Part shown: positions 16,751 to 64,000 of the stretch, piece by piece | Layout of the letters: each line of letters starts with the position of its first letter | Numbering within the stretch: the first letter of the stretch is position 1 | Assembly (NCBI RefSeq): GCF_036321535.1 | Contig: NC_087436.1 | Span: forward strand, 69,256,001 to 69,320,000 | DNA length: 64,000 bases | Reading direction: 5' to 3' | From: Camelus dromedarius | Lineage: Eukaryota | Translations under genes and position numbers: made by a program | Notes under the pieces: generated by a model | Databases searched by the model: none | What the model was told of the DNA's origin: nothing | What the model saw: the letters and a program-made list of their open reading frames with translations, nothing else

Positions 16751-18815
16751 CTTCTAAGTCTCAACTGTATTACCTTTTAAAATATCATAGTTGGTATTTC
16801 CACTAATTTAGGGAGCATAGTAAATCTGAGCCTGCAGGTGAATCATTATTTTTGGTAAAATTTGTAGAACATAATAGAAACCAATACTTCCCTCAGAGTA
16901 AAAGGCAAGCAAGTTTAAAAATCAAAGCATGCAATAATATGAATCATTTTTTATTTATAACATGTAGGACTTGATTTGTATTCACATATACATGCATGTA
17001 CACATGTACAAAATATTTCCACCTACCTATCAGCATTTTCAATTAAGTTGTGATCCAGAAGAAACTTGAGCAGAATTTCAAAATATTGTCACATATGAAT
17101 TGTAAATAGTTTTAAAATAAAATACTTTAAAATATAATATTTTAACTGACTAGGAAACCCAGAGGTCATAAAACTTCAGAAAAATCTGTTTTTATAAAAA
17201 CTTAAACTGGAAAATATAACATATTAATGTTTAGCCTCTGCATTCCTAAAATTATTACAAATTGTTAACAATATTTAATATGATCACTCATAAATGATTT
17301 AAATAAGTAACATTTGTGTTTAAGAAAGGCTTTGGTCTCTACAAGATAGAATATCCTTACTTATTTGTCAGGGTAGTTCTTCTGAATAAACTCAGAAATG
17401 GCTAACAAGGTATACAAACCTTGAGTTTACTTAAACTTACTATGTTACACCATTTTATAATAATGAAGAAGTGAAGGGATATCTTGACTTTAATATAAAA
17501 TGACTAAAGATTAAACTATGATTTTTAAGATTACTTCAGGAAAAAAACATTATCTTATTACCAAAGTAAGTGATTTAGCACTGTGGTAAATTATTGCTTT
17601 GATTACATGATTTAGATCTTAAAACAAATAGCATTAATGCTTACACTTTGAAAACTTTATGCAGTATAATTATTTAATTATAAAACCTCATAAAATTGAG
17701 AATATATCTTTTCCCCTATATCTCTTCATAGTTAATTCCCCATCTAAGAATAAGTTTATGATTAACTTGCTATTTTTTGTGCCATTATTACTGTTAAAAA
17801 ACCTGTAACAGCCCAAATGATTTATATTTGTTCTAAGATAGAGCTGTAATTTTAGGTCTCTCAAGTTTGGGTTATAAATATCAAAGTCTGTAATAATCAT
17901 TTAACGAACTTGGTTACTAGGTAAGGCCACCAGAGTTAGACTGAACTGAATTCTTTGTAGAAAAGAAAGTAAAAGACATCTTTATTTTTTAAAATACAAA
18001 TTGTGTTCATGTTACTGTAGATTCTGACAGATTCGAGCTAATAAGAAGCCTAAGTATTTGTGCTTGGTATAGTGATCTCAGTACAGTTTATGAGAGGACC
18101 AGGAGAAGTGACGGGGTAAAAGAAAAGTAAGAAATGAAGAAATTCACCGAGTGTGATTAGTTGGAGAGATCACCCCCATAGGAAAGAGCATTTCTGAGAA
18201 ATGCGTTTCCTCCCAGCTCTATCTAAGTAGTTTGTTTCTTCTTTACAAATATTTATATTGTAAGTAAAATTGGAGTAGGAGAGAATCAAGTAGATTTTTA
18301 GTTACTTTAAAAGGGTAGGTGCTCCACCACACCATCAGTCACGCTAACTTATGAAAATCAGCTAGTCTGAAGCTACAAAGTATTACAACACACATGAAGT
18401 ACTGTCACTTTTAGTATCCAAATGAAGGGAAATCTTTAAATCAAAGACAAAAAAGAGTGTTTTTTATCTGAGGGGACACAGTCTGATGTGTCAGATGAAA
18501 ATAAATTGATGGCATCAAGTGTGCTTTACGGCAGAGGAGAAACCCTGACAGCCTCCTGATCTTCCTGACCTGAAGGGAAGCTCTGGCTGGAGTGTGCTCT
18601 GCACTACTCTTGCCTGGTTCCTTTAGAGAACATGCAAGAACTATAACACACTGGGCACAGGATGATGTTATGTATTTAGAAAATCTTCAATATGATTAAT
18701 ACTGAGATTAGAATTAATCACTATGTTCCCAAGGCCTCAAAGAGCATCTCAATTAGTTCAGCTGAAAGTAGTGAATAAAATAAAGCACTGAGTCTTAATT
18801 AGCGACATCCATGTG

Positions 18816-18821
18816 TTTATT
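18816..18821 (-). other. Candidate polyadenylation signal (AATAAA) of UGT2C1-like copy A
   Basis: TTTATT on the plus strand, about 210 nt past the stop. Copy B has an AATAAA at a near-equivalent position (52747-52752). Confidence 0.4.
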
Positions 18822-19032
18822 TGTTTATCTTCTCTTTTCAACGAATAGATTATTTTAAACATTAGTGCTAAATCATGTGGCACATTTTCGTGTTGTCTTT
18901 GACAGTTGACTTGATAAGCTGAGGAATGGACAAGAACCCAGAAGAGCAGGAGAGGAATCTGTTCAAATCAGTAGCTGGATTAATTCGGATGGACCCTACC
19001 AAGGTTTCCAGTCAAATCATTAATAAAAAACC

Positions 19033-19312
19033 CTACTCTCTCTTTTTCTTCTTTGTAGTTTTACCAAACTTCAGGCAACAAAACAGACAACATTTTGTGA
19101 TGACGAACACAGCAGTTGCCACACAGGCCAACAGGAACCCAATCACATCCAGAGAGTGGTTCTGGTACCAGGTGAGGTCGTGGAGGGCTGGTCGCAGGTG
19201 CTTGGCTCCTTTGTGGCGCATGACAAACTCTATCCAGAAGACTGCTCGGTCCAGGGGCTTTACAGGCTGATCGTGGTGGATTCTTGATAACTTCATAGCG
19301 TTCTCTTTATAG
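19033..19312 (-). CDS. UGT2C1: UGT2C1-like copy A exon 6 (coding part, 280 bp)
   Basis: Acceptor CCTCAG|C TAT AAA GAG AAC. Encodes [40 protein letters not shown]...KKKKRE*. Confidence 0.95.
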
Positions 19313-22300
19313 CTGAGGATTGAATATATAGATAGCAACTTGAAAAATTCATTGAGGACATGACACACCTAAAATTATGTTATATATTAAAGAATCAAAA
19401 AGAAAGACTATGTGTAAATATGTATGCATAATGAATACAACGTTGTAAATCAACTATACTTTAATTAAAAAGTATATTACATAATTACACAATAAATTAT
19501 GTCATAAGTGACATTACCCAGAGCACTGAAAACATAAGAAAATTTCTTTCATCTTGAGATATTTCAATATAATAGTCTATCAACTGGAATTGGTTGGATG
19601 TTTCAAAGTGTAATTAACAATTGGAGTAGGGGAAAAAAGAATTTCTATTGGAAATAGCATTTTAAAAATTCAGAATAGGAATGTAGACTACGTAATTGAT
19701 AAAACAGCATTTTGCTTTCATTTGCAGAGGGTGGTATTGTGAACATGATAGTGACAGGAAGCAGTACTGAGGGCAGGTCTATGAGAGAGGAACCCTTCCC
19801 CCACCCCTCCACCTTCCCCAGGTTTGGTCTGGAGTGTTGGTGTTAACAAGAAGCTAGTATTCAACAGCATCAGGTAATGGTTTCCATCCGTGATCTTCAT
19901 GGCCCTGACATTTCAGATGAAAACAGAAAATTTAATGTCACCCTATGGGCAAGAAGTAGGGCTCTAGAGTGAGTAGATGCTGGAATCTTTGCTTCAGGCT
20001 ACAGAGGGATGCAAGCGCCAGTGGTGAGATGGGAAATGGCAAGAGCCAGAACACAAACCCTCTACCTTCTGTCAAGGGACAAAAGAACAGGCCAGTGTTT
20101 TGTTTTGAGGTTTTGGATGGCTGACCTAAATGAAGCATTTCCTTGGATTTGTGAAGGAGGTGAAGTTAGCAGGTGATTCTTCCACACTCAAGTGCCATGA
20201 TCATTTAAATTAAAAATCATTAAATTGCAGAAAATGGTGAAACAGCATGTAGAAAGTTCTGAGGAGAATTGTGATCCAAAAAAACAAAAATCTTATACAA
20301 AGCCCTGTTGCCCTTTGGTTTAAGAAAAATAAGGCAGGGCTTTGTTAATACACAAGAATTTAAGGAATAAGTACGTCTGCCTATATCTCAGGGATCAAGG
20401 AAACAACAGCAACAGAAGCTCCAAAAATAGAAATAAAGTATTTGTCAGATGAAAAATTAGTACCAACAAAACCTGACAGGTACAGAAAGACTGTACTAAA
20501 ACAAACAGTGCATCATTAAATCCGTATAAATACAAAAGTAGGGCTAAAATGTATTGGGAAGTGTGATCATAGACAATGTTGTATGTTGTAAGCCTTGATA
20601 ATGTTATAATGATTATACATCAAGCAATAATTGAGCTGTGATATAGAAGAGAGAAATGGAAAGTTGAGAAGTAGCTTCCTAGAGAAAAGTCATTCAGTAT
20701 TAGCCAAAATTGGAAATAGTTTAAAAATAATTATTTTAGTCTCTAATGTCAATATTTATTCATAGATGTCTATGAAATTTTTAGTAAGAATTTATCTGAT
20801 ATTAAAAGAAGTATTTATCCAAAGCCTGGAAAGTATTATCATTTTGATATAGTTTCTTTTTTTCCTCCAAGATTATATTTATTAGATTTATTTGAAATAC
20901 AATAACAGAAATGTAACCATTCCATATTGAGAATTTATTTATTTTTGATCACAGCTCATCGCCATGTTGTACAAAGTTCCCCAGAACTTGTTCATTTTAT
21001 TACTGAAAGTTTGACCCTTTGACCAATATTTCTCTACTCCCTGAACCCCTAGTCCCTGGTAAACACCACTCTACTTTCTGTTTCTATGCATTCGCCCCTT
21101 TAGATTATACATAAAAGTGACACACAGTATCTGTCTTTCTTTGTCTGACTTGCTTAGCATAATGCCATGTTGTCACAAATGGCAGGATTTCCCTCATTCC
21201 TATAGCTGAATGATATTCCTTGATAAACATACACCACATCTTCTTTACGTATTCATCCATAGACAGACAGGCTATTTTCATATCTTAGTTATTGTGAATA
21301 AAGCTGCAGTGATCATGTGAGTGCAGATATCTCCTTCATATTCTATTTTCATTTCCTTGAGTCATAATGCCAGTAGTGGGATTGCTGGGTAATGTAGTAG
21401 TTCTATTTTTAATGTTTTGGGGAACGTGCATACTGTTTTCCATAGTGTCTGCAGCAATTTCTATTCCCATCAGCAGTGCCCTAGAATTCCCTTTCTTCAC
21501 AGACGCACCACCCTGGATATACCTAGTGTTTTGATGCTGGCCTATCTGACAGGTGTGAGGTGATGTCTCACTGTGGTTTTGATTTGCTTTTCCTGATGCT
21601 TGGTGATGTCAGGCCCCCTTTCATGTACTTGTGGGCCATTTGTATGTCTTTGGGAAAATATCTATTCAGTAACTCTGGTCTTTTGAGAACATTCTTTTGG
21701 CTTAGAGTTAAATGAGTTTTTTTATATTTTGTGTATGAAGTGCTGATCAGATATGACGTTTGAAAATATTTTCTCTCATTTTGTAGGTTGCCTTTCATTT
21801 TTTAGAGAATTTTATTTTCTGTGCAGAAGTGGTAAGTGTGATGTAGACTCATTTGTTGATTTCCACTTTTGTTCTTTGTGCTGTTGCTGTCATTTCCAAA
21901 ATATTGTTGCAAAGACCCTTATTCAAGGAGCCTTTTTCTCTGTTTCCTTCTAGGGCTTTTTATGGTTTCAGGTCTTCTGTTTAAGTCTTTAGTTCATTTC
22001 CAGTTAATTTTGGTAAGTGATGTCAGATAGGGGCCCAAATTCATTCTCCTTTATGTGATTATCCAGTTTCCCCAGCACCAGTCATCTGTCAATGGACATT
22101 TAGGTTGCTTCTATGTCTTGGCTATTGTCAATAGTGCTGCTATAAACGTCAGGGTGCATGTATCTTTTCAAATTAGAGTTTCCTCCAGGTATATACCTAG
22201 GAGTGGAATTGCTGGATCATATGGTAAGTCTATTTATAGTGTTTTAAGGAATCTCCATAGAATTTTCCATAGTGACTTCACCAAATGCATTCCCACCAAT

Positions 22301-25300
22301 AGTGTAGAATGGTTCCCTTTTCTTCACACCCTCTCCAACATTTATAAATTGATTAATTATACATAATCAGCAGTACATAGTTAATATCAAATATGATTGT
22401 CTTGTACTTAAATTCTATGAAGGAATTTTGTCATGTACTGTCCCTGAGCAGTAGATTGTAACTTCAAAGAAATATTAAACTTATTTAAAGAAATTAAGCT
22501 ATTGTTACAGAGACACAATCTTTTCTTATTATTGATAGTTTTTTCTTTTCAAAACAGAAAAATATCATATGATATCACTTATATGTGGAATCAAAAAATG
22601 GCAAAACTGAACATATTTTCAAAACAGAAAGAAACTCACAGACATAGAAAACAAACTTATGGTTACCAGGGGGATGATGAGAAGGGGACCAATTGGGAGT
22701 TTGGGATTTGAAGTCACTAATGGCTATAAACAGATAGAGAAACAGCAAGGTTGTACTGTATAGCACAGTGAACTATATTCAATATCTTATAATACCCTAT
22801 AATAAAAAAGACTATGAAAAGGAATATATATATATGTATACACATAACTGAACCACTATTGTGTACACCAAAAACTAGAAAACATTGTAAACCAACTATA
22901 CTTAATAGAAAAATTTAAAAAGTAATTAATTGAATTGAATGAAACAGTTCACTCCTATTAAAAAACAGGATGACTCTCAGAAAAGAATATATTGTATACT
23001 CACGAAGGGTTGTTAATAACCTCCTTCAAAGCATGAAGCAGATCAGAACTTGTCATTGTGGGCAAGTCTACTTCAACAGCTGCCCCTTTGGCTTTTACAC
23101 GAGCAACATTATCATGCTGATCACCAAACATGGGAATTCCCACCATAGGCACCCCATGGTAAATAGCTTCATAGACCCCATTGGTTCCACTGTGAGTGAT
23201 AAAAGCTCTGGTTTGGGGATGGCCTAAAAAGAAAAAGAAAATCATTATTCTGTGTTGTATGTGTTTCAGAAACAAAAAAACATGACCGCTGTATACGTCA
23301 CCAATTCAATTAGGCAGCATTTCCTATGCAATTCTGTGCCCTGTGGCTTTGTATATATTCCTATAGGCTCCAAAGAAAGTGGCAGCTAATGATTCCAGGC
23401 TGAGCAGCAATGAATGATTCTAGCAATTAAGTCATTCCACAAAACCCTGAAGGTTTGTGCAGAGGGAACTGATGGGGAGCAGTTGCCATGGACAAGTTGT
23501 TGGGAAAATACATCAATCAAAAGGAATGAAGGGATTTCAGAAAACAAATGCTTGTGTGGATGGGGAAGAGGAGCTGAGATGTGCAGAGTTTCAATGTGAG
23601 AATGTGGGCATAACAGGCTAGAAAGGTAGACTAGGGCAAGATCCTGAGGTACTGTAAGAACATGGGATTTTGCACATGATGTTACATTAGTATGGAACCA
23701 TGAATAATATCGCAGATGGTGAACGGAATTGTCAGGTTTTTTTTTTTCACAAATTTATAGTGGGGAGGAGAGAAAAGAGGTGGGAGGGAATGGATAGAGA
23801 GATTCAGGAGGCAGCTGAAATACTCTGCAAAATTTCGTGAGAGACTGTTCGAAAGGGACATTCATTGATTCTGAGGAGGGAGGTTGTATCATCAATGGGG
23901 AATTATAAATTCCACATTTATGTCAGACCTTGAGAAAAATTCTGTTCACAACCAAACCCTAGTCAGATTTCTCTGAACTCTCTTCCCCACTGGGTCCTGA
24001 TATGGAGCTTCTTTGTTTATCTCTGCTTTGCCCAGTTTAGTAAGAATCCTACGAAGCCAGTTTAGCTAGACTCCACCATCCTTGATGTCCAGTCACCCTT
24101 TATAGCTGTTGCGTCATTCTTCACAATCCCTCAGATGATGTTTGACCACCCTAGCTTGCCATTGGCAAGAATCAGATTAGGTCAGTTTTGCCGGAGCCCC
24201 CTTTGTCCCTGATGTCTCCTCTTAGTAACTTTCCACCCAGTGGTACCCAATTTTGCTCTTTGGCTATAAATTTCCCAATTTTCCTGTTTGTATTCAGAGT
24301 TGAGTCCAATCTCTCTGTCTCACTGTCAAAGTCCACTGCAGTAGGATGTAAACTTAACATGATGGTTTTGAATAAACTGTGTCTTCCAGTCTTTAACAAG
24401 TGTCTGGAAGATTTTTCCTTAACAAGCCCCAGAAGAAAGGTGATGAAGATGTTAAGGGTGGTTTTTTGGTTGTTTTTTTTTTTTTTTTTCGCTTATTTTG
24501 AATTCAAATTTGTTGAATTTTTTTTTTTAACTGAGGAATCATTTAGCTTATCCCTCATTGAACTCTGTGCAAATTTCTCCTCTGTGGTCTTACCAAGAAG
24601 ATCATTTTGCGGAATCCATTCATACAGCCGGGTATTGGCTCCGAGTGTATCTGGTTTCTTTCCTGTGTATCTCCACAGAACCTGTTAAGATACATGCCTT
24701 TACTCAATTAGAAGACTTTTAGAATCACATCCTGTCAGAAGGAGGCAGTTAACTTAGAATTAATCTAGTTCGATGTCACCAGGTTATAGATGAGAAACTG
24801 AGGCCCTAAGTGATTAAGTAATGAATGTTTCTAAACCATGGACGCTACAATCATGTTTTCAAATGCTTGGAATAATCCTAATAGATCGGCTATCAACATG
24901 AGATGGATTCTAATTTAGTAGAGGAAGGCAATCTGTATCTGAGACAACTACATATTGGTGTCGCTAGGCCATTGTGGTAGAGGAGATTTTTGAAAGAATG
25001 TTTTCAGAGGCAAAAGGGAGGGATGTTACCTACCTCACTAAGAAAGTGTTAGTGCTTTGACCTTTGTAATACATTGGCAGTAACACAGAAGCAAGCATTG
25101 CCTTTCTATCTTTGTAAGTATTGTAAGTTTAGAATTTGGTGGCGTTCAATAGATCAACAATGTTGTATAACCATTAGCACTATCTATATCCCAAATGTCT
25201 TCTTCATCTGAAGCATAAACTCTGCCATTTAGCAAAAACGTCCTGTTCCCTGCCCTCCCTAGTCTGGTAACCTCTATTCTTCCCGTCTCCATGAACTTGA

Positions 25301-28300
25301 CCGCTCTAGGTACCACATATACTGGAAGCATACAGTAATTGTCCTTTTCTGATTTAGCATTATTTCACTTAGCATTGTCTTCAAGGTTCATGCATGTGTA
25401 ACATATCAAAATCACCTTTCTTTTTTAGGTGGAAAAATATCCCATTGTGTGTATATATAACACTTCCTTTATCCATTCAGTTTTTGATTGTAGATAATGT
25501 TGCTGTGACCATCGGTGTACAAGCATCTGTTGAGGCCCTGATTTCAGTCCCTTTGACAGATAGCCAGGATTAGAGTTATTGGGTCATATGAGAGCTCTAT
25601 GTTTAACTCTGTGGGGGACCACGGACATGTTTTCCAGAGCAGATACCTCACTGTGCACCCTTACCAGCAATGCGTGAGGCCGCACGTCTCCACATTCTCA
25701 CCAGTACTTGATAGTTTCCATTTTTTGATAATAGCTATTCTAATGAGTGAAGCAGTATCTCTTTGTGCTTTTGATTTGCATGTCCCTAATGATGAATGAT
25801 GCTGGACACCTTTTCATGTACTTTTTGACCATTTGTATGCCTCCTCTGGAGAAAAGTCTGTTCAAGTACTTTCCCATTTTTCAACTGGTTTTTTTTGTTG
25901 TTGTTGTTGTTGAGTTGTAGGAGTTCTTTATAAACTGTGCACATTCATTCTTTATCATAACCACGATTTGCAAATATTTTCTCCCAATCTGTACATTGTA
26001 TTTCACTTTCTTGATAGTATCTTTTGATGCAAAATTTCTCTTCCTTTGATGTAATTCAATTTATTTATTTTTTTCTTTTCTTACTTGTGCTTTTTTGTGT
26101 CATACTTATTGAAATCATAGCAAAATCCAAAGTGATGAAGTTTTCCTTTAGGGATATTTTGTAAAAGTGTTACTGTTTTAATTCTAAAGTTTCACTCTCT
26201 GAACTACCTTGAGTTTATTTTTGTATGTGGTATAAGATACATGTCGAGTTTCCTTCTTTATCATGTAGATATCAAGATTTTCTTGGCTAGTCTTTCCTTT
26301 TTTTTCTCATAAATGGTTTCTCTGTAAATTGTTGCTATTTTGGTGCCTGAGGGAAGAGGTGAGCTGAGGGTCTTCCTTCTGTGCCATCTTGGCAACATTT
26401 CTTTCATATCCTCTCAAATCAATCAAACGAGGACACTTCTTCACATCATACACAAAAATAAACTCAAAATGGCTTAATGGCAAATATCAAGTATGATACC
26501 AGAAAACTCCCAGAAGAGAATGTAAGCAAAACATTCTCTGACATAAATCATATCAATACTTTCTTAGATCTGTCTTCCAAGGCAATAGAAATAAAAGCAA
26601 TAATAATCAAATGAGACGTCATCAACTGTGTAAGCATTTGCACAGCAAAGGAAACCATAAGGAAAACAAAAGGACAAACTAGGAGTGGGAGAAACTACTT
26701 GCAAATGACATGACCGACAAAGACTTAACTTCCAAAATACACAAGTAGTTCATAAAACTAAAAACAGAAAAACAAACAAACACAAAAAATCTCAAAAAAT
26801 AGACAGAAGATCTAAATGGACATTCATTCAAAGAAAACATGTACATGGCCAAAAGTCACACTAAAAGATGCTCAAGATCGAGAAATGCAAATCAGAACCA
26901 CAATGAGGTATCACCTCACATAGATCAAAATGGCCATCATTGGAAAATCTACAAATAATTGCTGGAGAAGGTGTGGGGAAAAGGGAACCCTCCTACGCTG
27001 TTGGATGGAATGACAATTAGTGCAGCCATTATACAGAATGGTATAGATGTTCCCTAAAAAACAAAATAGAGTCATCATATGATCTAAAAATTCCACTGTT
27101 GGGCATACATCTGTAGAAGACAAAAATTCTATTTCGAAAACACACATGCACCCCGTTGGTCATCGCAGCACTATTTATAGTAGCCAAGACATGGAAGCAA
27201 CCTAAGAGTCCATTAACAGACGAAAGGATAAAGAAGATATGGTGTGAATATATACACAATAGAATACAACTCAGCCATGAATAGAATGAAATGATTCCAT
27301 TTGCAGCAGTATGGATGGACCTAGAGATTGTCACAGAGGGTTAAGTAAGTCAGACAGATAAAGGCAAATACTACATATCAATTATATTTGAAAAAATTTT
27401 TAAATTATGTAAATGAACTTATTTATAAAACAGAGGTGGACTTATAGATGTAGAAAACAAACTTCTGGTTACCAAATTGGAAGGCGAATGGGAGAGATAA
27501 ATTGGGAGTGTGGGTTTAACAGATGCAGACTGCCACATGTAAAACAGATGAATAACCAGGATTTACTCTATAGTACAGGGAACCGTGTATTCAATATTTT
27601 GCAGTAAAGAAGAATTGGAAAAGATTATAGATATATACATATGTATGTATAACTGAATCACTTTGCTGTATACCTGAAACTAGCACACTATTATAAATCT
27701 ACTGTAATAAAAATAATTCCCTGTAAGCCCTAGTTTCTCTGCATCTCTTCTTTGGTTTGTATTTGCATTCATTTAAAAATATTTTTGAATGCTCTTGTGA
27801 TTTATCTTTGGACCGATTTATTGCTAACTTCAAAGTGAACAGAAACTCTGCTCCTGTATATCGCCATTTCCCTTTCTGTTATTGACGTGTACATACTTAT
27901 ACACTGTGTTCCTAGTTACATGAATTAATAATTTTTATGCATCTTCTTTTAAATGACTGAGAAAATTAAAATAAATCAGAATTATAACCAAAATTACAAT
28001 AATAGTAGCTTTTATGGTTGCTTTTGTTTTTACCTTTACTGCAGATCTTTATTTCATCGTATGATTTTTTATTAATGTCCAGCAGCCTTTCATTTCAACC
28101 AGAAAGGGTCTCTTTTGCATTTTTACAGGAAAAGTCTAGTGCTATTCACACCCTTCGTCTTTTGTTCATCAAGCAGTGTCTTCATTTCTACCTCATTGTT
28201 GAAGGAAATTTTGCCTGATAAAACTCTCAGTTAACAATTTTGTCTTTAAGACTTTGAATTTATCAACCCACTGCCTTCTGGCCTCCAAGGTTTCTAATGA

Positions 28301-31300
28301 GAATTGGCTGATTATTTTACTGAAGTTAACTTTCATGTGATGATTTTCTTCTTTCTGGCTCCTTTCAAGCTTTTCTCATTGTCTTTGTCATTCAGCAGCT
28401 TGATTCGAATATGTCTTTGTGTAGCTCTCTTTGAATTTATCCCACCTGTAGTTCACTAAGCTTCTTGGATTTATGTCTTTCATTAAAAGCAGTATATTTT
28501 GAGACATTATTGCTTTAAATATCTTTTCTGCCCATTTCTGTCTCTCTGGGACTCCCAGCATGTGTCTGCTCATGCACAGGATGGTGTCCCACAAGTCCCT
28601 TAGGCTTTGCTCATTTAGCTGCATTTGTTTCTCTTTCTGTTCTTTGAATTTGCTAATTTCAGTTACTCTGTTTTCATTTTGCTGGTTCTTTTGCTCGCTC
28701 TTGTCTGATTTGGAACCCCTGAGGTAAAATTTTCATTTTAATTCTTGAAATTTTTAGCTGTAGAATTTCTTCTTGACTCTTTTAAAAGAATTTATTTCTC
28801 TTTATCAATATTTTATATCTTATCTATATCTTTTGTTCTCTTTATAACTGTCTCCCTGTGGTTCTTTGTGAATTTTTAAGACAGTGCTATTAAAATCTTT
28901 TTCTGGTAATTCCAAAATCCACGCTCCTTCACTAATTGTTTCTGTCTATTTTGTTCCTTTGATTGGACCATCTTTTCACCTATGTATGCCTTGTGATATT
29001 TTTTTTCACCTATGTATGCCTTGTGATATTTGCTGAGAACTGTACATTTGAGGTTTTTATAAAGTTCTAACTCCAGAAATCAGAATTTCCCCTTCTTAAT
29101 TTTTTTTTTTATATTGTTGAAGGGTTTCTCTTTGCCAGGAATCAGTCTGAGGTAAAAGCTTTAGGTTTTCACAAGTCTTTTGTCAGCCTATGGTTTTCCC
29201 TGGACATACACATAGCTTTCTAAATTTCACTGTATGTGAAGTTTTAAAAAAATGGCCCCATTGGTGATTGTCTGACTCCCAGAGAAAAAAAGAAAAAAAA
29301 ATAGTGCTCATCCTTTAAAATCCCTGGAAACTTCTGCTAATCGAAGTTGAAACAACTGTGGCCAACTTCTGTGCCTACATGCCAGTGAACAAAGCATCAG
29401 TCATCAATCAGAATGCAGAACCAAAATCTGGAGATTAAGGTCATTATTTCCCAGCATAGCTCCAGCAAATCACACCAGGAATAAAACATGTTGGCTGTCA
29501 TGGGACTGGGTGAGGTAGACTTAGAACTTGCTGCTATGCTAAATGGTTGAATTTGTTTTAAAAAATTAACCACAAATTACTAGTCAGTCTCTCCACCGAA
29601 AAATTCAAGTGCTCACATAGAGTCCATATTTCCATCATAGTTACTTCAGACAATTTCTTGGTGCTTCTGAATCTACCTTGATGTGACCCTTAAGCACTGT
29701 ATTTTAATACAGTTGAAAATTTAATATTTTTCTGAAGATGCCATTTAGATGAGATGTTTAAATGGATATTGCTTCCACAAAATGATTTTTGAAAGTAATT
29801 TGGTTATGTGCACAAGACTTGTCATGATGTTTTGGAACTTAAAATTGCATATAAAGTTAGCTATTTTATCTAAAGCTACAAGGTAAAAAGTGTCCCTGGC
29901 AAATTAGGAACACCATCACTCAGTTATAACCTAGGATGCTATCAATTAAAAAAATGCATAGTTTGTGGGAATGCCATAGAGTGAACTGCCATTAATCTTT
30001 TACAGTATTACTAAAATCTTTAACTGTTTACATAGAAGCATCACATTTAGGAGTATTCCTGGAATCTAAGCTGTCAGTTCCAGGTCCCAAACAATTAATT
30101 AAAAGGAGATGTACTCCGAGGCAGCCTGTGAATCAATGGTATAATTTTGAGTGTCTCTTCCTGTATTCTCTGACATGTTAGTTGTACCTTGTGTATATGC
30201 CACAGATTTAAAAAACAAATAACACAAAAAGAGGTTAGATTTCATGGAAACCTTAAAACCTAGGCAAACAGCTGACCTATTGTTTAAGATCGAGAGTGAC
30301 TTAGTTTTATCCCATTACATAAAGAAAATACGGCAATATGTTTTCCTGTCAGTAATGCCACATTTAAAGCAAGTAGCATAAAATATCTTCTTGTAACATT
30401 TAATATTTTTTCTTTACACTTTAGTTAAATTGATGCTAATATCAGTAGCTTTTCTTACATTTTTAAAGTGCACATTTAAGGAGATCCTCATAGATTTTAA
30501 AACAGCTGCTCTTCCAAAAATAACTTTATCTGACCTTCTGTGGAATCTGGGCAAGGGCTGATGCAATCATCTTGGCCTTTTCTTCCGTGAGGTTTCTGAT
30601 CATTGACCCCAGAGTAAACACCACAACTCCATCTTCTCCAGAGCTTTGGACAAACTCTTCTAAGTCCTGTGAAGAAAACAATCTTTGTAATATGAAAGTT
30701 AACACTTACAAGAATAAGATAGTCACACACTTTTCTCAATGTGTCTGAATTATTAGAAAGTTTCTGCTTTTTCATATGTTAACCATTTCAGAGTATGAAA
30801 CATATGGCCTGAAATCCTTGGTTATTAGGCAAATTAAGAATAATTTAATTGTAAAACATGGGGGGAGATAGTCAATATATTGTAATAACTGCAAATGGAA
30901 AGCAACCTTTAAAAATTATATGAGATAAAAGATTTTAAAAATAATTTAAGCTGGAGGCTCCCTACTAGTATGTTCTAGACATTTCTGAGGTGTGTTTGTA
31001 TCTCTGTTTACAAATCATTGACTACATGTTATCATTTGCCATGTGTTGAGCTCTTTATATGTGTCATTACACTCAGATATATGGTGATCTTAAGATATAT
31101 GTATACATTTGCAGATGGGAAAGCTACCTCAGAGAGGTAAAATAATTTGTTGAAGGCTATAAAGCAGTAGCTGGCAGAGTCAGGTTTCTATTTAAGCTTG
31201 TTGTTTGTAAAGTGAATGACTATATTAGATACTGTCTATTGCCTTCCAACAGCCTCTCCACAAATCTCCAGATGAAGAATATCTGATTTCTGCTTCATGT

Positions 31301-39454: not shown

Positions 39455-39498
39455 GATTAACTCTTGCTGAAAGCAAATCTGAGCTTAAACCAAGTGCA

Positions 39499-42465: not shown

Positions 42466-42500
<35 letters not shown>

Positions 42501-52130: not shown

Positions 52131-52219
52131 TATTTTTTTAATGGAGGTAGTGAGGATTGAACTCAGGACCTTGTATGTGCTAAACACACACACTACCACT
52201 GCACTTTACAACCTCTCTT
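52131..52219 (-). mobile_element. Short Vic-type SINE specific to copy B
   Basis: TTTTTTTAATGGAGGTAGTGAGGATTGAACTCAGGACCTTGTATGTGCTAAAC... flanked by TAGTTACTT on both sides. Copy A has a single TAGTTACTT (~18299-18307). Confidence 0.8.
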
Positions 52220-53000
52220 TAGTTACTTCTATAAAGTAGGTATTAAATTCCAGTTATTTGCTCCATGCTAACTTACAAAGTTCAGCTACTTCTCTGAAGC
52301 TACGAAAGTGTTACAATCCAAATGAAGAATTAACATTATTAATTTCCAAATGAAGAGCAATCTACAAATCAAAGGCGAAAAAGCGTGTTTTGTAGTGCAA
52401 GGGGGACACAGTCTGACGTGTCAGATGAAAATAAATTGATGGTATCAAGTGTGCTTTACTGTAGAGGAGAAACCCTGACAGCCTCCTGATCTCCCTGACC
52501 TGAAGGGAATCTGGCTGAGTGTGCTCTGCACTACTCTTGCCTGGTTCCTTTGGAGAACATGCAAGAACTATAACACACTGGGCCCAGGATGACGTTACGT
52601 ATTTAGAAAGTATTCAGTGTGATCAATGCTGAAAACGGAATTAACCATTTTGTTCCTAAGGCCTCAGACAACATCACAATTTGTTGAACTGAAAGCTGTG
52701 AATAAAGCACTAAGTCTTTATGGTAGCAACTCCATGTGTGTATTTGTTTATTTTCTCTTCTTAAAGAATAGGTTTTTGGGAAAGAATTTGAAACCTTAAT
52801 TCTAAATCATGTGGCACATTTCGGGGGTGAGTCTTTGATCTTTGATTTGATAAGCTGAGAAATGGACAAGAACCCTGAAGAGTAGGAGAGGAATCAGTTC
52901 AAGTCAGTGGATGGATTGATTTGTATGGGCCCCACCATGGTTTCCACCCAACTTGTTAAAAAAAGAAACAAACAAAAAATATCAACAGAAAAACCAAATC

Positions 53001-53280
53001 CTATTCTCTCTTTTTCTTCTTTGTGGTTTTACCAAACCTCGAGCAACAAAACAGGCAACATTTAGTGACCAAAAATATAATAGTTGCCACACAGGCCATC
53101 AGGAACCCAATCACATCCAAAGAGTGGTGCTGGTACCAGGAGAGGTTGTGGAGGGCTGGGCGCAGGTGCTTGGCTCCTTTGTGGCGCGTGACAAACTCGA
53201 TCCAGAAGACTGCTCGGTCCAGGGGCTTCACTGGCTGATCGTGGTGGATTCTTGATAACTTCATAGCATTCTCTTTATAG
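53001..53280 (-). CDS. UGT2C1: UGT2C1-like copy B exon 6 (coding part, 280 bp)
   Basis: Acceptor CTTCAG|C TAT AAA GAG AAT; open to TAG after KKKKRE. 11 amino-acid differences from copy A. Confidence 0.93.
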
Positions 53281-56200
53281 CTGAAGATTGAATATATGGA
53301 TAACGACTTGAAAAAACCATTAAGGATGTGGTATACCTAAAATTATGTTATATGTTATTAAAAGTATTTTAAATAGTTGTATAATAAATGATGTCATAAA
53401 TAACATCTCCAAGAGCACCAAAGCATGTGAGTTTGTTTCCTCTTGAAATATTTCTATATAGTGGTCTATCAGCTGGAATTTTTTGGATGCTTCATACTGT
53501 AAATAACAATTGGAGTTAGGGGAGAAAAGAACTTCTATTGGAAATAGCGTTTTCAAAGTTCAGATATAGGAATATGAATACAGCATTTTACCCTCATTTG
53601 CTGAGGGGGTGGTATTGAGAACATGATAGTGACAGGAAGCAGCACTGAGGGCAGGTCTGTGAGAGAGGAACCCTTCCCCCACCCCTCCACCTTCCCCAGG
53701 TTTGATCTGGAGTGAGGGTGTTAACAAGAAGCTAGTGTTCAACAGCATCAGGTAATGGTTTCCCTCCATGATCTTCATGGCCCTGACATTTCAGATGAAA
53801 ACAGAAAACTTAATGTCACCCAATGGGCAAGAAGTAGGTCCCTAGAGTGAGTAGATGCTGGAATCTTTGCTTCAGGCTACAGAGGGATGCAAGCGCCAGT
53901 GGTGAGATGGGAAATGGCAAGAGCCAGAACACAAACCCTCTGCCTTCTGTCAAGGGACAAAAGACCAGGCCAGGGTTTTGTGTTGAGGTTTTGGATGGCA
54001 GACCTAGAAGAAGAATTTCCTTGGATATATGAAGGAGGTGTAGGAGACAGGTGATTCTTCCACACTTCAAGTGCCATGATCATTTAACTTATAAATCATT
54101 GAACTGCAGAAAATGGAAAACAGCATGTAGAAAGTTCTGAGGAGAATTGTGATCCAAAAAAACAAAAATCTTATAGAAAGCCCTGTTGCCCTTTGGTTTA
54201 AGAAAAATAAGGCAGGGCTTTGTTAATACACAAGAATTTAAGGAATAAGTACGTCTGCATATATCTCAGGGATCAAGGAAACAACAGCAACAGAAGCTCC
54301 AAAAATAGAAATAAAGTATTTGTCAGATGAAAAATTAGTACGAACAAAACCTGACAGGTACAGAAAGACTGTACTAAAACAAACGGTGCATCATTAAATC
54401 CATATAAATACAAAAGTAGGGCTAAAATGTATTGGGAAGTGTGATCATAGACAATGTTGTATGTTGTAAGCCTTGATAATGTTATAATGATTATACATCA
54501 AGCAATAATTGAGCTGTGATATAGAAGAGAGAAATGGAAAGTTGAGAAGCGGCTTCCTAGAGAAAAGTCATTCAGTATTGGCCAAAATTGGAAATAGTTT
54601 AAAAATAATTATTTTAGTCTCTAATGTCAATATTTATTCATAGATGTCTATGAAATTTTTAGTAAGAATTTATCTGATATTAAAAGAAGTATTTATCCAA
54701 AGCCTGGAAAGTATTATTATTTTGATATAGTTTCTTTTTTTCCTCCAAGATTATATTTATTAGATTTATTTGAAATACAATAACAGAAATGTAACCATTC
54801 CATATTGAGAATTTATTTATTTTTGATCACAGCTCATCGCCATGTTGTACAAAGTTCCCTAGAACTTGTTCATTTTATTACTGAAAGTTTGACCCTTTGA
54901 CCAATATTTCTCTACTCCCTGAACCCCTAGTCCCTGGTAAACACCACTCTACTTTCTGTTTCTATGCATTCGCCCCTTTAGATTATACATAAAAGTGACA
55001 CACAGTATCTGTCTTTCTTTGTCTGACTTGCTTAGCATAATGCCATGTTGTCACAAATGGCAGGATTTCCCTCATTCCTATAGCTGAATGATATTCCTTG
55101 ATAAACATACACCACATCTTCTTTACGTATTCATCCATAGACAGACAGGCTATTTTCATATCTTAGTTATTGTGAATAAAGCTGCAGTGATCATGTGAGT
55201 GCAGATATCTCCTTCATATTCTATTTTCATTTCCTTGAGTCATAATGCCAGTAGTGGGATTGCTGGGTAATGTAGTAGTTCTATTTTTAATGTTTTGGGG
55301 AACGTGCATACTGTTTTCCATAGTGTCTGCAGCAATTTCTATTCCCATCAGCAGTGCCCTAGAATTCCCTTTCTTCACAGACGCACCACCCTGGATATAC
55401 CTAGTGTTTTGATGCTGGCCTATCTGACAGGTGTGAGGTGATGTCTCACTGTGGTTTTGATTTGCTTTTCCTGATGCTTGGTGATGTCAGGCCCCCTTTC
55501 ATGTACTTGTGGGCCATTTGTATGTCTTTGGGAAAATATCTATTCAGTAACTCTGGTCTTTTGAGAACATTCTTTTGGCTTAGAGTTAAATGAGTTTTTT
55601 ATATTTTGTGTATGAAGTGCTGATCAGATATGACGTTTGAAAATATTTTCTCTCATTTTGTAGGTTGCCTTTCATTTTTTAGAGAATTTTATTTTCTGTG
55701 CAGAAGTGGTAAGTGTGATGTAGACTCATTTGTTGATTTCCACTTTTGTTCTTTGTGCTATTGCTGTCATTTCCAAAATATTGTTGCAAAGACCCTTATT
55801 CAAGGAGCCTTTTTCTCTGTTTCCTTCTAGGGCTTTTTATGGTTTCAGGTCTTCTGTTTAAGTCTTTAGTTCATTTCCAGTTAATTTTGGTAAGTGATGT
55901 CAGATAGGGGCCCAAATTCATTCTCCTTTATGTGATTATCCAGTTTCCCCAGTACCAGTCATCTGTCAATGGACATTTAGGTTGCTTCTATGTCTTGGCT
56001 ATTGTCAGTAGTGCTGTTATGAACATCAGGGTGCATGTATCTTTTCAAATTAGAGTTTCCTCCAGGTATATACCTAGAAGTGGAATTGCTGGATCATATG
56101 GTAAGTCTATTTATAGTGTTTTAAGGAATCTCCATAGAATTTTCCATAGTGACTTCACCAAATGCATTCCCACCAATAGTGTAGAATGGTTCCCTTTTCT

Positions 56201-56880
56201 TCACACCCTCTCCAACATTTATAAATTGATTAATTATACATAATCAGCAGTACATAGTTAATATCAAATATGATTGTCTTGTACTTAAATTCTATGAAGG
56301 AATTTTGTCATGTACTGTCCCTGAGCAGTAGATTGTAACTTCAAAGAAATATTAAACTTATTTAAAGAAATTAAGCTATTGTTACAGAGACACAATCTTT
56401 TCTTATTATTGATAGTTTTTTCTTTTCAAAACAGAAAAATATCATATGATATCACTTATATGTGGAATCAAAAAATGGCAAAACTGAACATATTTTCAAA
56501 ACAGAAAGAAACTCACAGACATAGAAAACAAACTTATGGTTACCAGGGGGATGATGAGAAGGGGACCAATTGGGAATTTGGGATTTGAAGTCACTAATGG
56601 CTATAAACAGATAGAGAAACAGCAAGGTTGTACTGTATAGCACAGTGAACTATATTCAATATCTTATAATACCCTATAATAAAAAAGACTATGAAAAGGA
56701 ATATATATATATGTATACACATAACTGAACCACTATTGTGTACACCAAAATCTAGAAAACATTGTAAACCAACTATACTTAATAGAAAAATTTAAAAAGT
56801 AATTAATTGAATTGAATGAAACAGTTCACTCCTATTAAAAAACAGGATGACTCTCAGAAAAGAATATATTGTATACTCAC

Positions 56881-57100
56881 GAAGGGTTGTTAATAACCTC
56901 CTTCAAAGCATGAAGCAGATCAGATCTTGTCATTGTGGGCAAGTCTACTTCAACAGCTGCCCCTTTGGCTTTTACACGAGCAACATTATCATGCTGATCA
57001 CCAAACATGGGAATTCCCACCATAGGCACCCCATGGTAAATAGCTTCATAGACCCCATTGGTTCCACTGTGAGTGATAAAAGCTCTGGTTTGGGGATGGC
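56881..57100 (-). CDS. UGT2C1: UGT2C1-like copy B exon 5 (220 bp)
   Basis: Same splice sites as copy A. One coding difference seen: AGT>AGA (Ser>Arg) at 56925. Confidence 0.94.
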
Positions 57101-58470
57101 CTAAAAAGAAAAAGAAAATCATTATTCTGTGTTGTATGTGTTTCAGAAACAAAAAAACATGACCGCTGTATACGTCACCAATTCAATTAGGCAGCATTTC
57201 CTATGCAATTCTGTGCCCTGTGGCTTTGTATATATTCCTATAGGCTCCAAAGAAAGTGGCAGCTAATGATTCCAGGCTGAGCAGCAATGAATGATTCTAG
57301 CAATTAAGTCATTCCACAAAACCCTGAAGGTTTGTGCAGAGGGAACTGATGGGGAGCAGTTGCCATGGACAAGTTGTTGGGAAAATACATCAATCAAAAG
57401 GAATGAAGGGATTTCAGAAAACAAATGCTTGTGTGGATGGGGAAGAGGAGCTGAGATGTGCAGAGTTTCAATGTGAGAATGTGGGCATAACAGGCTAGAA
57501 AGGTAGACTAGGGCAAGATCCTGAGGTACTGTAAGAACATGGGATTTTGCACATGATGTTACATTAGTATGGAACCATGAATAATATCGCAGATGGTGAA
57601 CGGAATTGTCAGGTTTTTTTTTTTCACAAATTTATAGTGGGGAGGAGAGAAAAGAGGTGGGAGGGAATGGATAGAGAGATTCAGGAGGCAGCTGAAATAC
57701 TCTGCAAAATTTCGTGAGAGACTGTTCGAAAGGGACATTCATTGATTCTGAGGAGGGAGGTTGTATCATCAATGGGGAATTATAAATTCCACATTTATGT
57801 CAGACCTTGAGAAAAATTCTGTTCACAACCAAACCCTAGTCAGATTTCTCTGAACTCTCTTCCCCACTGGGTCCTGATATGGAGCTTCTTTGTTTATCTC
57901 TGCTTTGCCCAGTTTAGTAAGAATCCTACGAAGCCAGTTTAGCTAGACTCCACCATCCTTGATGTCCAGTCACCCTTTATAGCTGTTGCGTCATTCTTCA
58001 CAATCCCTCAGATGATGTTTGACCACCCTAGCTTGCCATTGGCAAGAATCAGATTAGGTCAGTTTTGCCGGAGCCCCCTTTGTCCCTGATGTCTCCTCTT
58101 AGTAACTTTCCACCCAGTGGTACCCAATTTTGCTCTTTGGCTATAAATTTCCCAATTTTCCTGTTTGTATTCAGAGTTGAGTCCAATCTCTCTGTCTCAC
58201 TGTCAAAGTCCACTGCAGTAGGATGTAAACTTAACATGATGGTTTTGAATAAACTGTGTCTTCCAGTCTTTAACAAGTGTCTGGAAGATTTTTCCTTAAC
58301 AAGCCCCAGAAGAAAGGTGATGAAGATGTTAAGGGTGGTTTTTTGGTTGTTTTTTTTTTTTTTTTTCGCTTATTTTGAATTCAAATTTGTTGAATTTTTT
58401 TTTTTAACTGAGGAATCATTTAGCTTATCCCTCATTGAACTCTGTGCAAATTTCTCCTCTGTGGTCTTAC

Positions 58471-58558
58471 CAAGAAGATCATTTTGCGGAATCCATTCAT
58501 ACAGCCGGGTATTGGCTCCGAGTGTATCTGGTTTCTTTCCTGTGTATCTCCACAGAAC
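58471..58558 (-). CDS. UGT2C1: UGT2C1-like copy B exon 4 (88 bp)
   Basis: Appears identical to copy A exon 4, with intact AG/GT. Confidence 0.94.
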
Positions 58559-61500
58559 CTGTTAAGATACATGCCTTTACTCAATTAGAAGACTTTTAGA
58601 ATCACATCCTGTCAGAAGGAGGCAGTTAACTTAGAATTAATCTAGTTCGATGTCACCAGGTTATAGATGAGAAACTGAGGCCCTAAGTGATTAAGTAATG
58701 AATGTTTCTAAACCATGGACGCTACAATCATGTTTTCAAATGCTTGGAATAATCCTAATAGATCGGCTATCAACATGAGATGGATTCTAATTTAGTAGAG
58801 GAAGGCAATCTGTATCTGAGACAACTACATATTGGTGTCGCTAGGCCATTGTGGTAGAGGAGATTTTTGAAAGAATGTTTTCAGAGGCAAAAGGGAGGGA
58901 TGTTACCTACCTCACTAAGAAAGTGTTAGTGCTTTGACCTTTGTAATACATTGGCAGTAACACAGAAGCAAGCATTGCCTTTCTATCTTTGTAAGTATTG
59001 TAAGTTTAGAATTTGGTGGCGTTCAATAGATCAACAATGTTGTATAACCATTAGCACTATCTATATCCCAAATGTCTTCTTCATCTGAAGCATAAACTCT
59101 GCCATTTAGCAAAAACGTCCTGTTCCCTGCCCTCCCTAGTCTGGTAACCTCTATTCTTCCCGTCTCCATGAACTTGACCGCTCTAGGTACCACATATACT
59201 GGAAGCATACAGTAATTGTCCTTTTCTGATTTAGCATTATTTCACTTAGCATTGTCTTCAAGGTTCATGCATGTGTAACATATCAAAATCACCTTTCTTT
59301 TTTAGGTGGAAAAATATCCCATTGTGTGTATATATAACACTTCCTTTATCCATTCAGTTTTTGATTGTAGATAATGTTGCTGTGACCATCGGTGTACAAG
59401 CATCTGTTGAGGCCCTGATTTCAGTCCCTTTGACAGATAGCCAGGATTAGAGTTATTGGGTCATATGAGAGCTCTATGTTTAACTCTGTGGGGGACCACG
59501 GACATGTTTTCCAGAGCAGATACCTCACTGTGCACCCTTACCAGCAATGCGTGAGGCCGCACGTCTCCACATTCTCACCAGTACTTGATAGTTTCCATTT
59601 TTTGATAATAGCTATTCTAATGAGTGAAGCAGTATCTCTTTGTGCTTTTGATTTGCATGTCCCTAATGATGAATGATGCTGGACACCTTTTCATGTACTT
59701 TTTGACCATTTGTATGCCTCCTCTGGAGAAAAGTCTGTTCAAGTACTTTCCCATTTTTCAACTGGTTTTTTTTGTTGTTGTTGTTGTTGAGTTGTAGGAG
59801 TTCTTTATAAACTGTGCACATTCATTCTTTATCATAACCACGATTTGCAAATATTTTCTCCCAATCTGTACATTGTATTTCACTTTCTTGATAGTATCTT
59901 TTGATGCAAAATTTCTCTTCCTTTGATGTAATTCAATTTATTTATTTTTTTCTTTTCTTACTTGTGCTTTTTTGTGTCATACTTATTGAAATCATAGCAA
60001 AATCCAAAGTGATGAAGTTTTCCTTTAGGGATATTTTGTAAAAGTGTTACTGTTTTAATTCTAAAGTTTCACTCTCTGAACTACCTTGAGTTTATTTTTG
60101 TATGTGATATAAGATACATGTCGAGTTTCCTTCTTTATCATGTAGATATCAAGATTTTCTTGGCTAGTCTTTCCTTTTTTTTCTCATAAATGGTTTCTCT
60201 GTAAATTGTTGCTATTTTGGTGCCTGAGGGAAGAGGTGAGCTGAGGGTCTTCCTTCTGTGCCATCTTGGCAACATTTCTTTCATATCCTCTCAAATCAAT
60301 CAAACGAGGACACTTCTTCACATCATACACAAAAATAAACTCAAAATGGCTTAATGGCAAATATCAAGTATGATACCAGAAAACTCCCAGAAGAGAACGT
60401 AAGCAAAACATTCTCTGACATAAATCATATCAATACTTTCTTAGATCTGTCTTCCAAGGCAATAGAAATAAAAGCAATAATAATCAAATGAGACGTCATC
60501 AACTGTGTAAGCATTTGCACAGCAAAGGAAACCATAAGGAAAACAAAAGGACAAACTAGGAGTGGGAGAAACTACTTGCAAATGACATGACCGACAAAGA
60601 CTTAACTTCCAAAATACACAAGTAGTTCATAAAACTAAAAACAGAAAAACAAACAAACACAAAAAATCTCAAAAAATAGACAGAAGATCTAAATGGACAT
60701 TCATTCAAAGAAAACATGTACATGGCCAAAAGTCACACTAAAAGATGCTCAAGATCGAGAAATGCAAATCAGAACCACAATGAGGTATCACCTCACATAG
60801 ATCAAAATGGCCATCATTGGAAAATCTACAAATAATTGCTGGAGAAGGTGTGGGGAAAAGGGAACCCTCCTACGCTGTTGGATGGAATGACAATTAGTGC
60901 AGCCATTATACAGAATGGTATAGATGTTCCCTAAAAAACAAAATAGAGTCATCATATGATCTAAAAATTCCACTGTTGGGCATACATCTGTAGAAGACAA
61001 AAATTCTATTTTGAAAACACACATGCACCCCGTTGGTCATCGCAGCACTATTTATAGTAGCCAAGACATGGAAGCAACCTAAGAGTCCATTAACAGACGA
61101 AAGGATAAAGAAGATATGGTGTGAATATATACACAATAGAATACAACTCAGCCATGAATAGAATGAAATGATTCCATTTGCAGCAGTATGGATGGACCTA
61201 GAGATTGTCACAGAGGGTTAAGTAAGTCAGACAGATAAAGGCAAATATTACATATCAATTATATTTGAAAAAATTTTTAAATTATGTAAATGAACTTATT
61301 TATAAAACAGAGGTGGACTTATAGATGTAGAAAACAAACTTCTGGTTACCAAATTGGAAGGCGAATGGGAGAGATAAATTGGGAGTGTGGGTTTAACAGA
61401 TGCAGACTGCCACATGTAAAACAGATGAATAACCAGGATTTACTCTATAGTACAGGGAACCGTGTATTCAATATTTTGCAGTAAAGAAGAATTGGAAAAG

Positions 61501-64000
61501 ATTATAGATATATACATATGTATGTATAACTGAATCACTTTGCTGTATACCTGAAACTAGCACACTATTATAAATCTACTGTAATAAAAATAATTCCCTG
61601 TAAGCCCTAGTTTCTCTGCATCTCTTCTTTGGTTTGTATTTGCATTCATTTAAAAATATTTTTGAATGCTCTTGTGATTTATCTTTGGACCGATTTATTG
61701 CTAACTTCAAAGTGAACAGAAACTCTGCTCCTGTATATCGCCATTTCCCTTTCTGTTATTGACGTGTACATACTTATACACTGTGTTCCTAGTTACATGA
61801 ATTAATAATTTTTATGCATCTTCTTTTAAATGACTGAGAAAATTAAAATAAATCAGAATTATAACCAAAATTACAATAATAGTAGCTTTTATGGTTGCTT
61901 TTGTTTTTACCTTTACTGCAGATCTTTATTTCATCGTATGATTTTTTATTAATGTCCAGCAGCCTTTCATTTCAACCAGAAAGGGTCTCTTTTGCATTTT
62001 TACAGGAAAAGTCTAGTGCTATTCACACCCTTCGTCTTTTGTTCATCAAGCAGTGTCTTCATTTCTACCTCATTGTTGAAGGAAATTTTGCCTGATAAAA
62101 CTCTCAGTTAACAATTTTGTCTTTAAGACTTTGAATTTATCAACCCACTGCCTTCTGGCCTCCAAGGTTTCTAATGAGAATTGGCTGATTATTTTACTGA
62201 AGTTAACTTTCATGTGATGCTTTTCTTCTTTCTGGCTCCTTTCAAGCTTTTCTCATTGTCTTTGTCATTCAGCAGCTTGATTCGAATATGTCTTTGTGTA
62301 GCTCTCTTTGAATTTATCCCACCTGTAGTTCACTAAGCTTCTATTTTGAGACATTATTGCTTTAAATATCTTTTCTGCCCATTTCTGTCTCTCTGGGACT
62401 CCCAGCATGTGTCTGCTCATGCACAGGATGGTGTCCCACAAGTCCCTTAGGCTTTGCTCATTTAGCTGCATTTGTTTCTCTTTCTGTTCTTTGAATTTGC
62501 TAATTTCAGTTACTCTGTTTTCATTTTGCTGGTTCTTTTGCTCGCTCTTGTCTGATTTGGAACCCCTGAGGTAAAATTTTCATTTTAATTCTTGAAATTT
62601 TTAGCTGTAGAATTTCTTCTTGACTCTTTTAAAAGAATTTATTTCTCTTTATCAATATTTTATATCTTATCTATATCTTTTGTTCTCTTTATAACTGTCT
62701 CCCTGTGGTTCTTTGTGAATTTTTAAGACAGTGCTATTAAAATCTTTTTCTGGTAATTCCAAAATCCACGCTCCTTCACTAATTGTTTCTGTCTATTTTG
62801 TTCCTTTGATTGGACCATCTTTTCACCTATGTATGCCTTGTGATATTTTTTTTCACCTATGTATGCCTTGTGATATTTGCTGAGAACTGTACATTTGAGG
62901 TTTTTATAAAGTTCTAACTCCAGAAATCAGAATTTCCCCTTCTTAATTTTTTTTTTTTTATATTGTTGAAGGGTTTCTCTTTGCCAGGAATCAGTCTGAG
63001 GTAAAAGCTTTAGGTTTTCACAAGTCTTTTGTCAGCCTATGGTTTTCCCTGGACATACACAAAGCTTTCTAAATTTCACTGTATGTGAAGTTTTAAAAAA
63101 ATGGCCCCATTGGTGATTGTCTGACTCCCAGAGAAAAAAAGAAAAAAAAATAGTGCTCATCCTTTAAAATCCCTGGAAACTTCTGCTAATCGAAGTTGAA
63201 ACAACTGTGGCCAACTTCTGTGCCTACATGCCAGTGAACAAAGCATCAGTCATCAATCAGAATGCAGAACCAAAATCTGGAGATTAAGGTCATTATTTCC
63301 CAGCATAGCTCCAGCAAATCACACCAGGAATAAAACATGTTGGCTGTCATGGGACTGGGTGAGGTAGACTTAGAACTTGCTGCTATGCTAAATGGTTGAA
63401 TTTGTTTTAAAAAATTAACCACAAATTACTAGTCAGTCTCTCCACCGAAAAATTCAAGTGCTCACATAGAGTCCATATTTCCATCATAGTTACTTCAGAC
63501 AATTTCTTGGTGCTTCTGAATCTACCTTGATGTGACCCTTAAGCACTGTATTTTAATACAGTTGAAAATTTAATATTTTTCTGAAGATGCCATTTAGATG
63601 AGATGTTTAAATGGATATTGCTTCCACAAAATGATTTTTGAAAGTAATTTGGTTATGTGCACAAGACTTGTCATGATGTTTTGGAACTTAAAATTGCATA
63701 TAAAGTTAGCTATTTTATCTAAAGCTACAAGGTAAAAAGTGTCCCTGGCAAATTAGGAACACCATCACTCAGTTATAACCTAGGATGCTATCAATTAAAA
63801 AAATGCATAGTTTGTGGGAATGCCATAGAGTGAACTGCCATTAATCTTTTACAGTATTACTAAAATCTTTAACTGTTTACATAGAAGCATCACATTTAGG
63901 AGTATTCCTGGAATCTAAGCTGTCAGTTCCAGGTCCCAAACAATTAATTAAAAGGAGATGTACTCCGAGGCAGCCTGTGAATCAATGGTATAATTTTGAG

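Follow-up and report, generated by a model that had tools for sequence, protein, structure and literature searches.

The question raised by this locus is how two tandem copies of one gene can be clearly diverged at their 3' ends and almost identical from within intron 5 onward. The DNA analysed (the window, 64,000 nucleotides from the dromedary, Camelus dromedarius) belongs to the UGT2C1 (UGT2E)-like cluster and carries a complete gene, A, and the 3' part of a second gene, B (Table 1). The history considered probable is that an unequal crossover in intron 5 joined two old paralogues, P and Q, into a hybrid of the anti-Lepore type, and that gene B was formed later by crossover or conversion between gene A and a gene of that hybrid lineage, C. 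Such a hybrid is a known kind of event that was not found in print for camels; literature searches on camel or UGT2 hybrids and on the subfamily, mostly of freely accessible journals, found no paper on this cluster.

Table 1. Features of genes A and B and of the spacer between them, in window positions.
Feature	Coordinates	Strand	Remarks
P-type 3' flank, exon 6 and 3' end of intron 5	17441..19717		~81% identity to 51193-53593; AATAAA 211 nt past stop
Intermediate block, intron 5	19718..20239		93.5% identity to 53594-54117; 34/521 differ
99.29% stratum	20240..23048		vs 54118-56925; 20/2,808 differ, 15 transitions
99.92% stratum	23049..30151		vs 56926-64000; 6/7,073 substitutions; longest perfect run 3,181 bp
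Gene A (parent P) exon 1, substrate-binding N-terminal domain	38734..39454	-	721 nt
Gene A exon 2	32442..32590	-	149 nt; AG/GT sites
Gene A exon 3	30535..30666	-	132 nt; encodes K322
Gene A exon 4	24594..24681	-	88 nt
Gene A exon 5	23004..23223	-	220 nt
Gene A exon 6, P-type	19033..19312	-	280 nt; UDP-binding domain end, TM helix near residues 491-509, KKKKRE tail
Spacer, A exon 1 to B 3' flank	39455..51192		11.7 kb
Putative Q-derived part of gene B	51193..54117		3' flank, exon 6, end of intron 5; AATAAA 248 nt past stop
99-bp B-only insertion in B 3' flank	52117-52215
Gene B exon 6, Q-type	53001..53280	-	vs A: 26/280 nt, 11/92 aa differ
Putative P-derived part of gene B, intron 5 to intron 3	54118..64000		Hybrid junction at left edge
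Gene B exon 5	56881..57100	-	Single change vs A: S422R, only in B among records examined
Gene B exon 4	58471..58558	-	Identical to A

Spliced gene A has six coding exons with AG/GT sites and encodes 529 aa without internal stops, identical to XP_064341187 (Camelus dromedarius); this splicing confirms the labelling of exon 6 and intron 5 in an earlier reading made from the letters of the window (the sequence-only reading). The protein matches PF00201 over its full length (residues 24-525, E 9e-225), and its nearest named relatives are UGT2C1-like proteins. The C-terminal transmembrane helix, the dilysine tail and the functional residues His35 and Asp151 are present in the A, C and Q records, and the tail also in B. 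The solved structures that matched were the C-terminal domains of UGT2B7, 2B10, 2B15 and 2B17 only, and no relative of solved structure was found with exon 1 alone. The UGT2C1/UGT2E proteins of rabbit, pig and carnivores share the 529-aa six-exon form and are the best named matches. According to the available text of PMC9658400, the NCBI name 'UGT2C1-like' corresponds to UGT2E1 in carnivores, the gene is expressed in liver in rabbit and pig, and its substrates are unclear; that text on UGT2C1/UGT2E contains no occurrence of camel or alpaca and no hybrid genes.

Self-BLAST aligned the two copies at an offset of 33,877 bp, from 17441/51193 (left copy/right copy) to the window end at 30151/64000, with 73.5% identity for 17441-18309 vs 51193-52132, 81.5% for 18340-19389 vs 52264-53357, and 98.5% for 19468-30151 vs 53360-64000. 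In a global alignment the dense differences ended at 20238-20239/54116-54117, and the 9,881 aligned columns right of 20239/54117 contained 26 substitutions together with three indels, one of 30 bp and two in T runs (1 bp and 2 bp). The switch had been placed by eye at 20243/54121, within 4 bp of this end, and the shared block of ~9.9 kb had been credited with ~30 differing sites and one 30-bp indel, in good agreement with the count. Identity blocks were set by change-point fitting on the global alignment, scored by BIC, which fell from 4040 for one segment to 2809 for two and 2757 for five; five-, six- and seven-segment fits were approximately equal, and all three retained identical right-hand blocks. 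Left of 19718 there were 413 differences in 2,168 positions (~81% identity), and the diverged block held 31 indel events, including a 76-bp A-only insertion besides the B-only insertion of Table 1, as the earlier description of many indels and copy-specific insertions had it. Difference density was higher in the 99.29% than in the 99.92% stratum (Fisher p = 4e-7, overstated since the boundaries were chosen from the data), in line with the denser differences noticed by eye over the first ~3 kb of the shared block. Formal alignment thus gave a stepwise rather than a uniform profile. The single abrupt step of the sequence-only reading is real, but it belongs to a staircase whose intermediate 93.5% block had been missed.

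Of the 26 substitutions in the near-identical block, 19 are transitions and 7 lie at CpG; the spectrum looks mutation-like, and alleles would show the same one. A perfect 30-bp tandem repeat, distinct from the 30-bp indel at 28465, is present at 28973-29031 and 62820-62878; because both copies carry it, the repeat predates the youngest exchange.

Gene B was compared with protein records from camelid protein clusters that were covered at 7 of 7 and 11 of 11 members, with another covered at 2 of 2. As records, which are not proven genes, there are three P-type and one Q in dromedary, two P-type and Q in Bactrian camel, one P-type and Q in wild camel, and one P and Q in alpaca; Q is thus recorded in four camelid species. 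Both parents of the hybrid are on record, A in the window and Q as records, and the alpaca P (XP_015101830) is flagged as low quality. The alpaca record reads A-L-D where camels have S-F-C at 154-156, and may represent a broken gene or a model error. The visible exons of B are open, and all three are identical over 195 residues to XP_064341197. Exons 1-3 of B were taken from this record; its annotation was probably made on the window's own DNA, and it is hence not independent of the window.

The diagnostic set comprised the 61 residues that distinguish the two A rows from each of the five Q rows; 54 of them lie in exons 1-5 and 7 in exon 6. Gene B shows the A state at 53 of the 54 and the Q state at all 7 (p = 1.8e-8). 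For the dromedary C record the figures are 50/54 and 7/7, and for the Bactrian record XP_074200501 they are 50/54 and 5/7 (p = 2.7e-5); the wild camel P record is in the A state throughout exon 6 (7/7) and at 50/54 in exons 1-5. The alignment and the diagnostic residues agree on a single ancestry switch at homologous positions of intron 5, in register. Judged by these residues, B is a hybrid with A's type in exons 1-5 and the exon 6 of paralogue Q, and C and XP_074200501 are hybrids too. The exon 6 of XP_074200501 is otherwise Q-type but departs from Q within residues 480-494, at A480, T484, Y488 and T494; the first three of these are shared with hippo and rabbit, and the patch is possibly derived from another UGT2 gene.

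The alpaca P record carries the same exon 6 type as A, with 1 difference from A in 92 residues against 12 from B. By this comparison of sequences gene A is the intact, unrecombined parent P; a P gene with A-type exon 6 predates the camel-alpaca split, and B is the derived form. The proposal of the sequence-only reading that unequal crossover had built a chimera whose exon 6 came from another paralogue is supported by the Q states in exon 6 of B and by the polarity that alpaca P provides.

Trees of 24 proteins were built by exon block. The P-type rows grouped together in the exon 1 tree (99/97) and the exons 2-5 tree (99/95), and C's exon 1 grouped across species (99/94 starred). The trees agree with the hybrid reading, with uneven support: in exon 6 the hybrids joined Q weakly (81/74) and a single P clade was not rejected by the AU test (p-AU 0.092). 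A reversal of the usual UGT pattern of variable N-terminus and conserved C-terminus had also been claimed, and this is not supported: the usual pattern is seen between P and Q, which differ at 49/240 residues in exon 1, 17/197 in exons 2-5 and 9/92 in exon 6. Ancestry, not selection, accounts for the 'reversed' variability between A and B, exon 1 being where P and Q are most different; selection acting in reverse on the N- and C-terminal halves was rejected.

The proposed history would begin in ancestral camelids with an old tandem pair of UGT2C1/UGT2E-like genes, P and Q, both of which are recorded in alpaca at the protein level. Misalignment of P with Q and crossover in intron 5, beside the block of raised identity, would account for the hybrid anatomy described above and would have added a gene with P exons 1-5 and the exon 6 and 3' flank of Q. 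For genes on the minus strand the resulting order would be P, hybrid (Q 3' end and P 5' end), Q. The first half of this order is visible in the window, where B adjoins A and its Q-type flank faces A exon 1, the side predicted for a hybrid between its parents. The spacer is predicted to be the old P-Q spacer. It gave one reversed 66% match and no colinear match to A's own 3' (left) flank; the reading that P was duplicated in tandem together with its 3' flank was rejected. The 93.5% block is likely to be the product of an older P/Q exchange that supplied identity for the crossover; an alternative reading is that it is a conserved intronic element.

The first hybrid lineage would be C, of which both dromedary and Bactrian camel have a record. 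In exon 1 the B record differs from A at 3 of 240 residues and C at 10, and in exon 6 B differs from C at 1 of 92. Later, in the dromedary lineage, A (P) and C would have misaligned in their turn, and a second exchange somewhere in the shared exons 5-2 would have produced B from the 3' part of C and the 5' part of A, with A-B-C-Q as the predicted order. This second exchange would explain both the A-like exon 1 and C-like exon 6 of B and the two young strata, of which the 99.29% stratum (0.71% divergence) would represent A vs C and the 99.92% stratum (0.085%) A vs an allele of A. The reciprocal product would carry C exon 1 on A exon 6, as found in both wild camel records, whose make-up represents either a reciprocal deletion hybrid or assembly collapse.

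Strata were dated at 2.2e-9 per year; a mutation rate of 1.1e-8 per 5-year generation is given in the accessible text of PMC7305198. The resulting ages, which are rough and clock-dependent, are ~0.19 (0.07-0.42), 1.6 (1.0-2.5), 16 (11-22) and 50 (45-56) My. Given the cross-species grouping of C in exon 1, the first hybrid probably either predates the dromedary-Bactrian split or was carried across it by gene flow. The accessible text of PMC12337305 describes gene flow between dromedary and Bactrian camels in both directions and quotes a species split of 4.4-8 Ma. The earlier description of the crossover as recent applies to the 99.92% stratum only, the same hybrid type being on record in the Bactrian camel. 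Some observations fit the proposed history poorly. The 0.71% stratum, at 1.0-2.5 My, is younger than the species split, a gap that calls for later conversion, introgression or a slower clock; the three residues at which exon 1 of B differs from A exceed the prediction of the 0.085% stratum; S422R, with which the substitutions of the 0.71% stratum end, is carried by B alone; and the Bactrian hybrid departs from Q in the patch at 480-494.

Gene B could instead be an assembly chimera or false duplicate, in which the assembly passed through the near-identical block from A's second allele into the 3' end of C or Q; hybrid C would still be real, and the dromedary would have three genes rather than four. 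Six substitutions in 7,073 positions are what two dromedary alleles would show (P of at least 6 = 0.17-0.95 for pi of 0.5-1.5e-3; pi is 0.52e-3 in the available text of PMC7305198 and 1.5e-3 in a study cited there), the exact B protein is on record from a single contig only, a 200-N gap lies at 56-255, and no B-like record (A-like exon 1 and Q exon 6) was found in another species among the records searched. Against a chimera, the 20/2,808 stratum is above allelic diversity (Poisson p <= 2e-8, with coalescent variance ignored), the longest perfect run could be spanned by long reads, and B has residues of its own, R422 and, among P-type rows, I222; it also has T468 in common with C only and M498 in common with one Q record of another dromedary assembly. 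Although the Bactrian hybrid argues at the sequence level that this type of junction is real, it does not follow from it that B is a copy separate from C. Of the 24 runs listed, 20 contained 0.87-0.97 of 679 sampled words of 49500-56000, which is no evidence for the junction since A and Q supply both sides; with a possible source sample set aside, 16 rows from 9 studies contained 0.87-0.91 of these words, which shows only that words of both sides occur in other animals too. Overall, a chimera is considered rather improbable.

Conversion without a hybrid-forming crossover, by which P overwrote exons 1-5 of a Q duplicate or Q overwrote exon 6 and flank of a P duplicate, is judged improbable as well. 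A staircase profile is compatible with nested tracts, M498 is common to B and a Q record, and K322 (exon 3) is common to dromedary A, B and C only, being absent from Bactrian, wild camel and alpaca P-type records, though exon 1 groups C across species. K322 is however one residue. For the Q-duplicate form, Q must have been duplicated separately and the tract must extend for at least 19 kb, from 20240 to exon 1, leaving Q residues in B at only 1/54, and the P-duplicate form predicts a return to A's 3' flank beyond the tract, of which none was found. The left edge of B shows no such return, and the B record is P-type through to exon 1. Old duplication followed by long-tract conversion, as offered by the sequence-only reading, is less economical alone than crossover, but conversion does seem to act: the sharing of K322 and of M498, each a single residue, suggests conversion on top of the crossovers. 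A single old duplication with an identity step caused by selection or by mutation-rate differences along the gene has nothing to recommend it beyond the existence of two copies and is refuted, its probability being negligible; across the step, the identity of neutral intron and repeat sequence changes from 99.7% to 81%, and exon 6 of B matches a third gene, Q.

If B arose by the two exchanges proposed, it should be an ER glucuronosyltransferase, as predicted from its sequence, with the aglycone-binding domain of P and the membrane anchor, tail and 3' UTR of Q. Four of the 11 exon-6 differences between A and B fall at 468-488, five in the predicted TM helix and two in the tail, and the 3' UTR was swapped in B along with exon 6. 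The effect of B is likely to concern dose, (mRNA) stability, localisation or membrane behaviour; its substrate range is probably unaffected because the aglycone-binding domain is P-type. In a search for transcripts, none of the best 120 of 346 short matches listed was a camel transcript-derived fragment. The differences between C and A in exon 1 (residues 92-126) cluster near 116-118, with EHN vs GQS, in the variable N-terminal domain, and are a candidate for altered substrate preference in C.

The locus would provide a dated, polarised case of hybrid-gene birth in a UGT2 cluster and predicts copy-number variation in camels of a probable liver conjugating enzyme, of relevance to veterinary dosing. 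In short-read genotyping, A, B and C are indistinguishable over exons 2-5. The type of event is familiar and here alters gene number and the enzyme tail, not the substrate-binding part; nothing in it points to a novel mechanism or enzyme specificity. On a wider and more speculative view, which is thought unlikely as a whole, both outcomes of one recurrent exchange may persist in Old World camels, the dromedary carrying the duplication hybrid, B, and the wild camel the reciprocal deletion hybrid; UGT2C/E genes would then number 4 in dromedary, 3 in Bactrian and 2 in wild camel, the catalytic front of P type would have been multiplied behind the Q 3' UTR and anchor, dromedary copy number would still vary, and clearance of plant toxins and drugs would be affected.

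Anti-Lepore and Lepore globins are unequal-crossover hybrids of two intact parents, the reciprocal product being a deletion hybrid, of which the wild camel record may be the equivalent. Globin fusions are rare alleles, whereas the camel hybrid type is recorded in two species and has apparently been duplicated again. The human CYP2D6-2D7 hybrid tandems (e.g. *36+*10) likewise involve tandem drug-metabolism paralogues with a 5'/3' hybrid beside a parent, as described in the accessible part of PMC7692531; there one partner is a pseudogene ~94% identical to the other, whereas both camel parents have intact records, the flanks are ~81% identical and the visible exons of B are open. Vertebrate Ugt2 clusters show lineage-specific whole-gene duplication, as in camel, and the human and rodent clusters follow birth-and-death evolution with little conversion (accessible text of PMC1885805).

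An isolated UGT2-type exon 1 on the minus strand at ~12167-12881, with two in-frame stops (near 12822 and 12624), lies downstream of gene A and is followed by L1; by its look it is a pseudogene fragment of another UGT2 subfamily. The assembly gap is followed by L1 copies opposed in orientation (256-2465 vs 6082-8247, 85.5%), and 256-11500 is a hard-to-assemble region, 17 kb from the switch. Within the spacer, an L1 at 44884-47964, with 13-bp direct repeat flanks, consists of 5' UTR and ORF1 and then jumps to the 3' end near 47272. The element around it is presumably a Tigger1 fossil, and the L1 is a good marker for repetition of the spacer.
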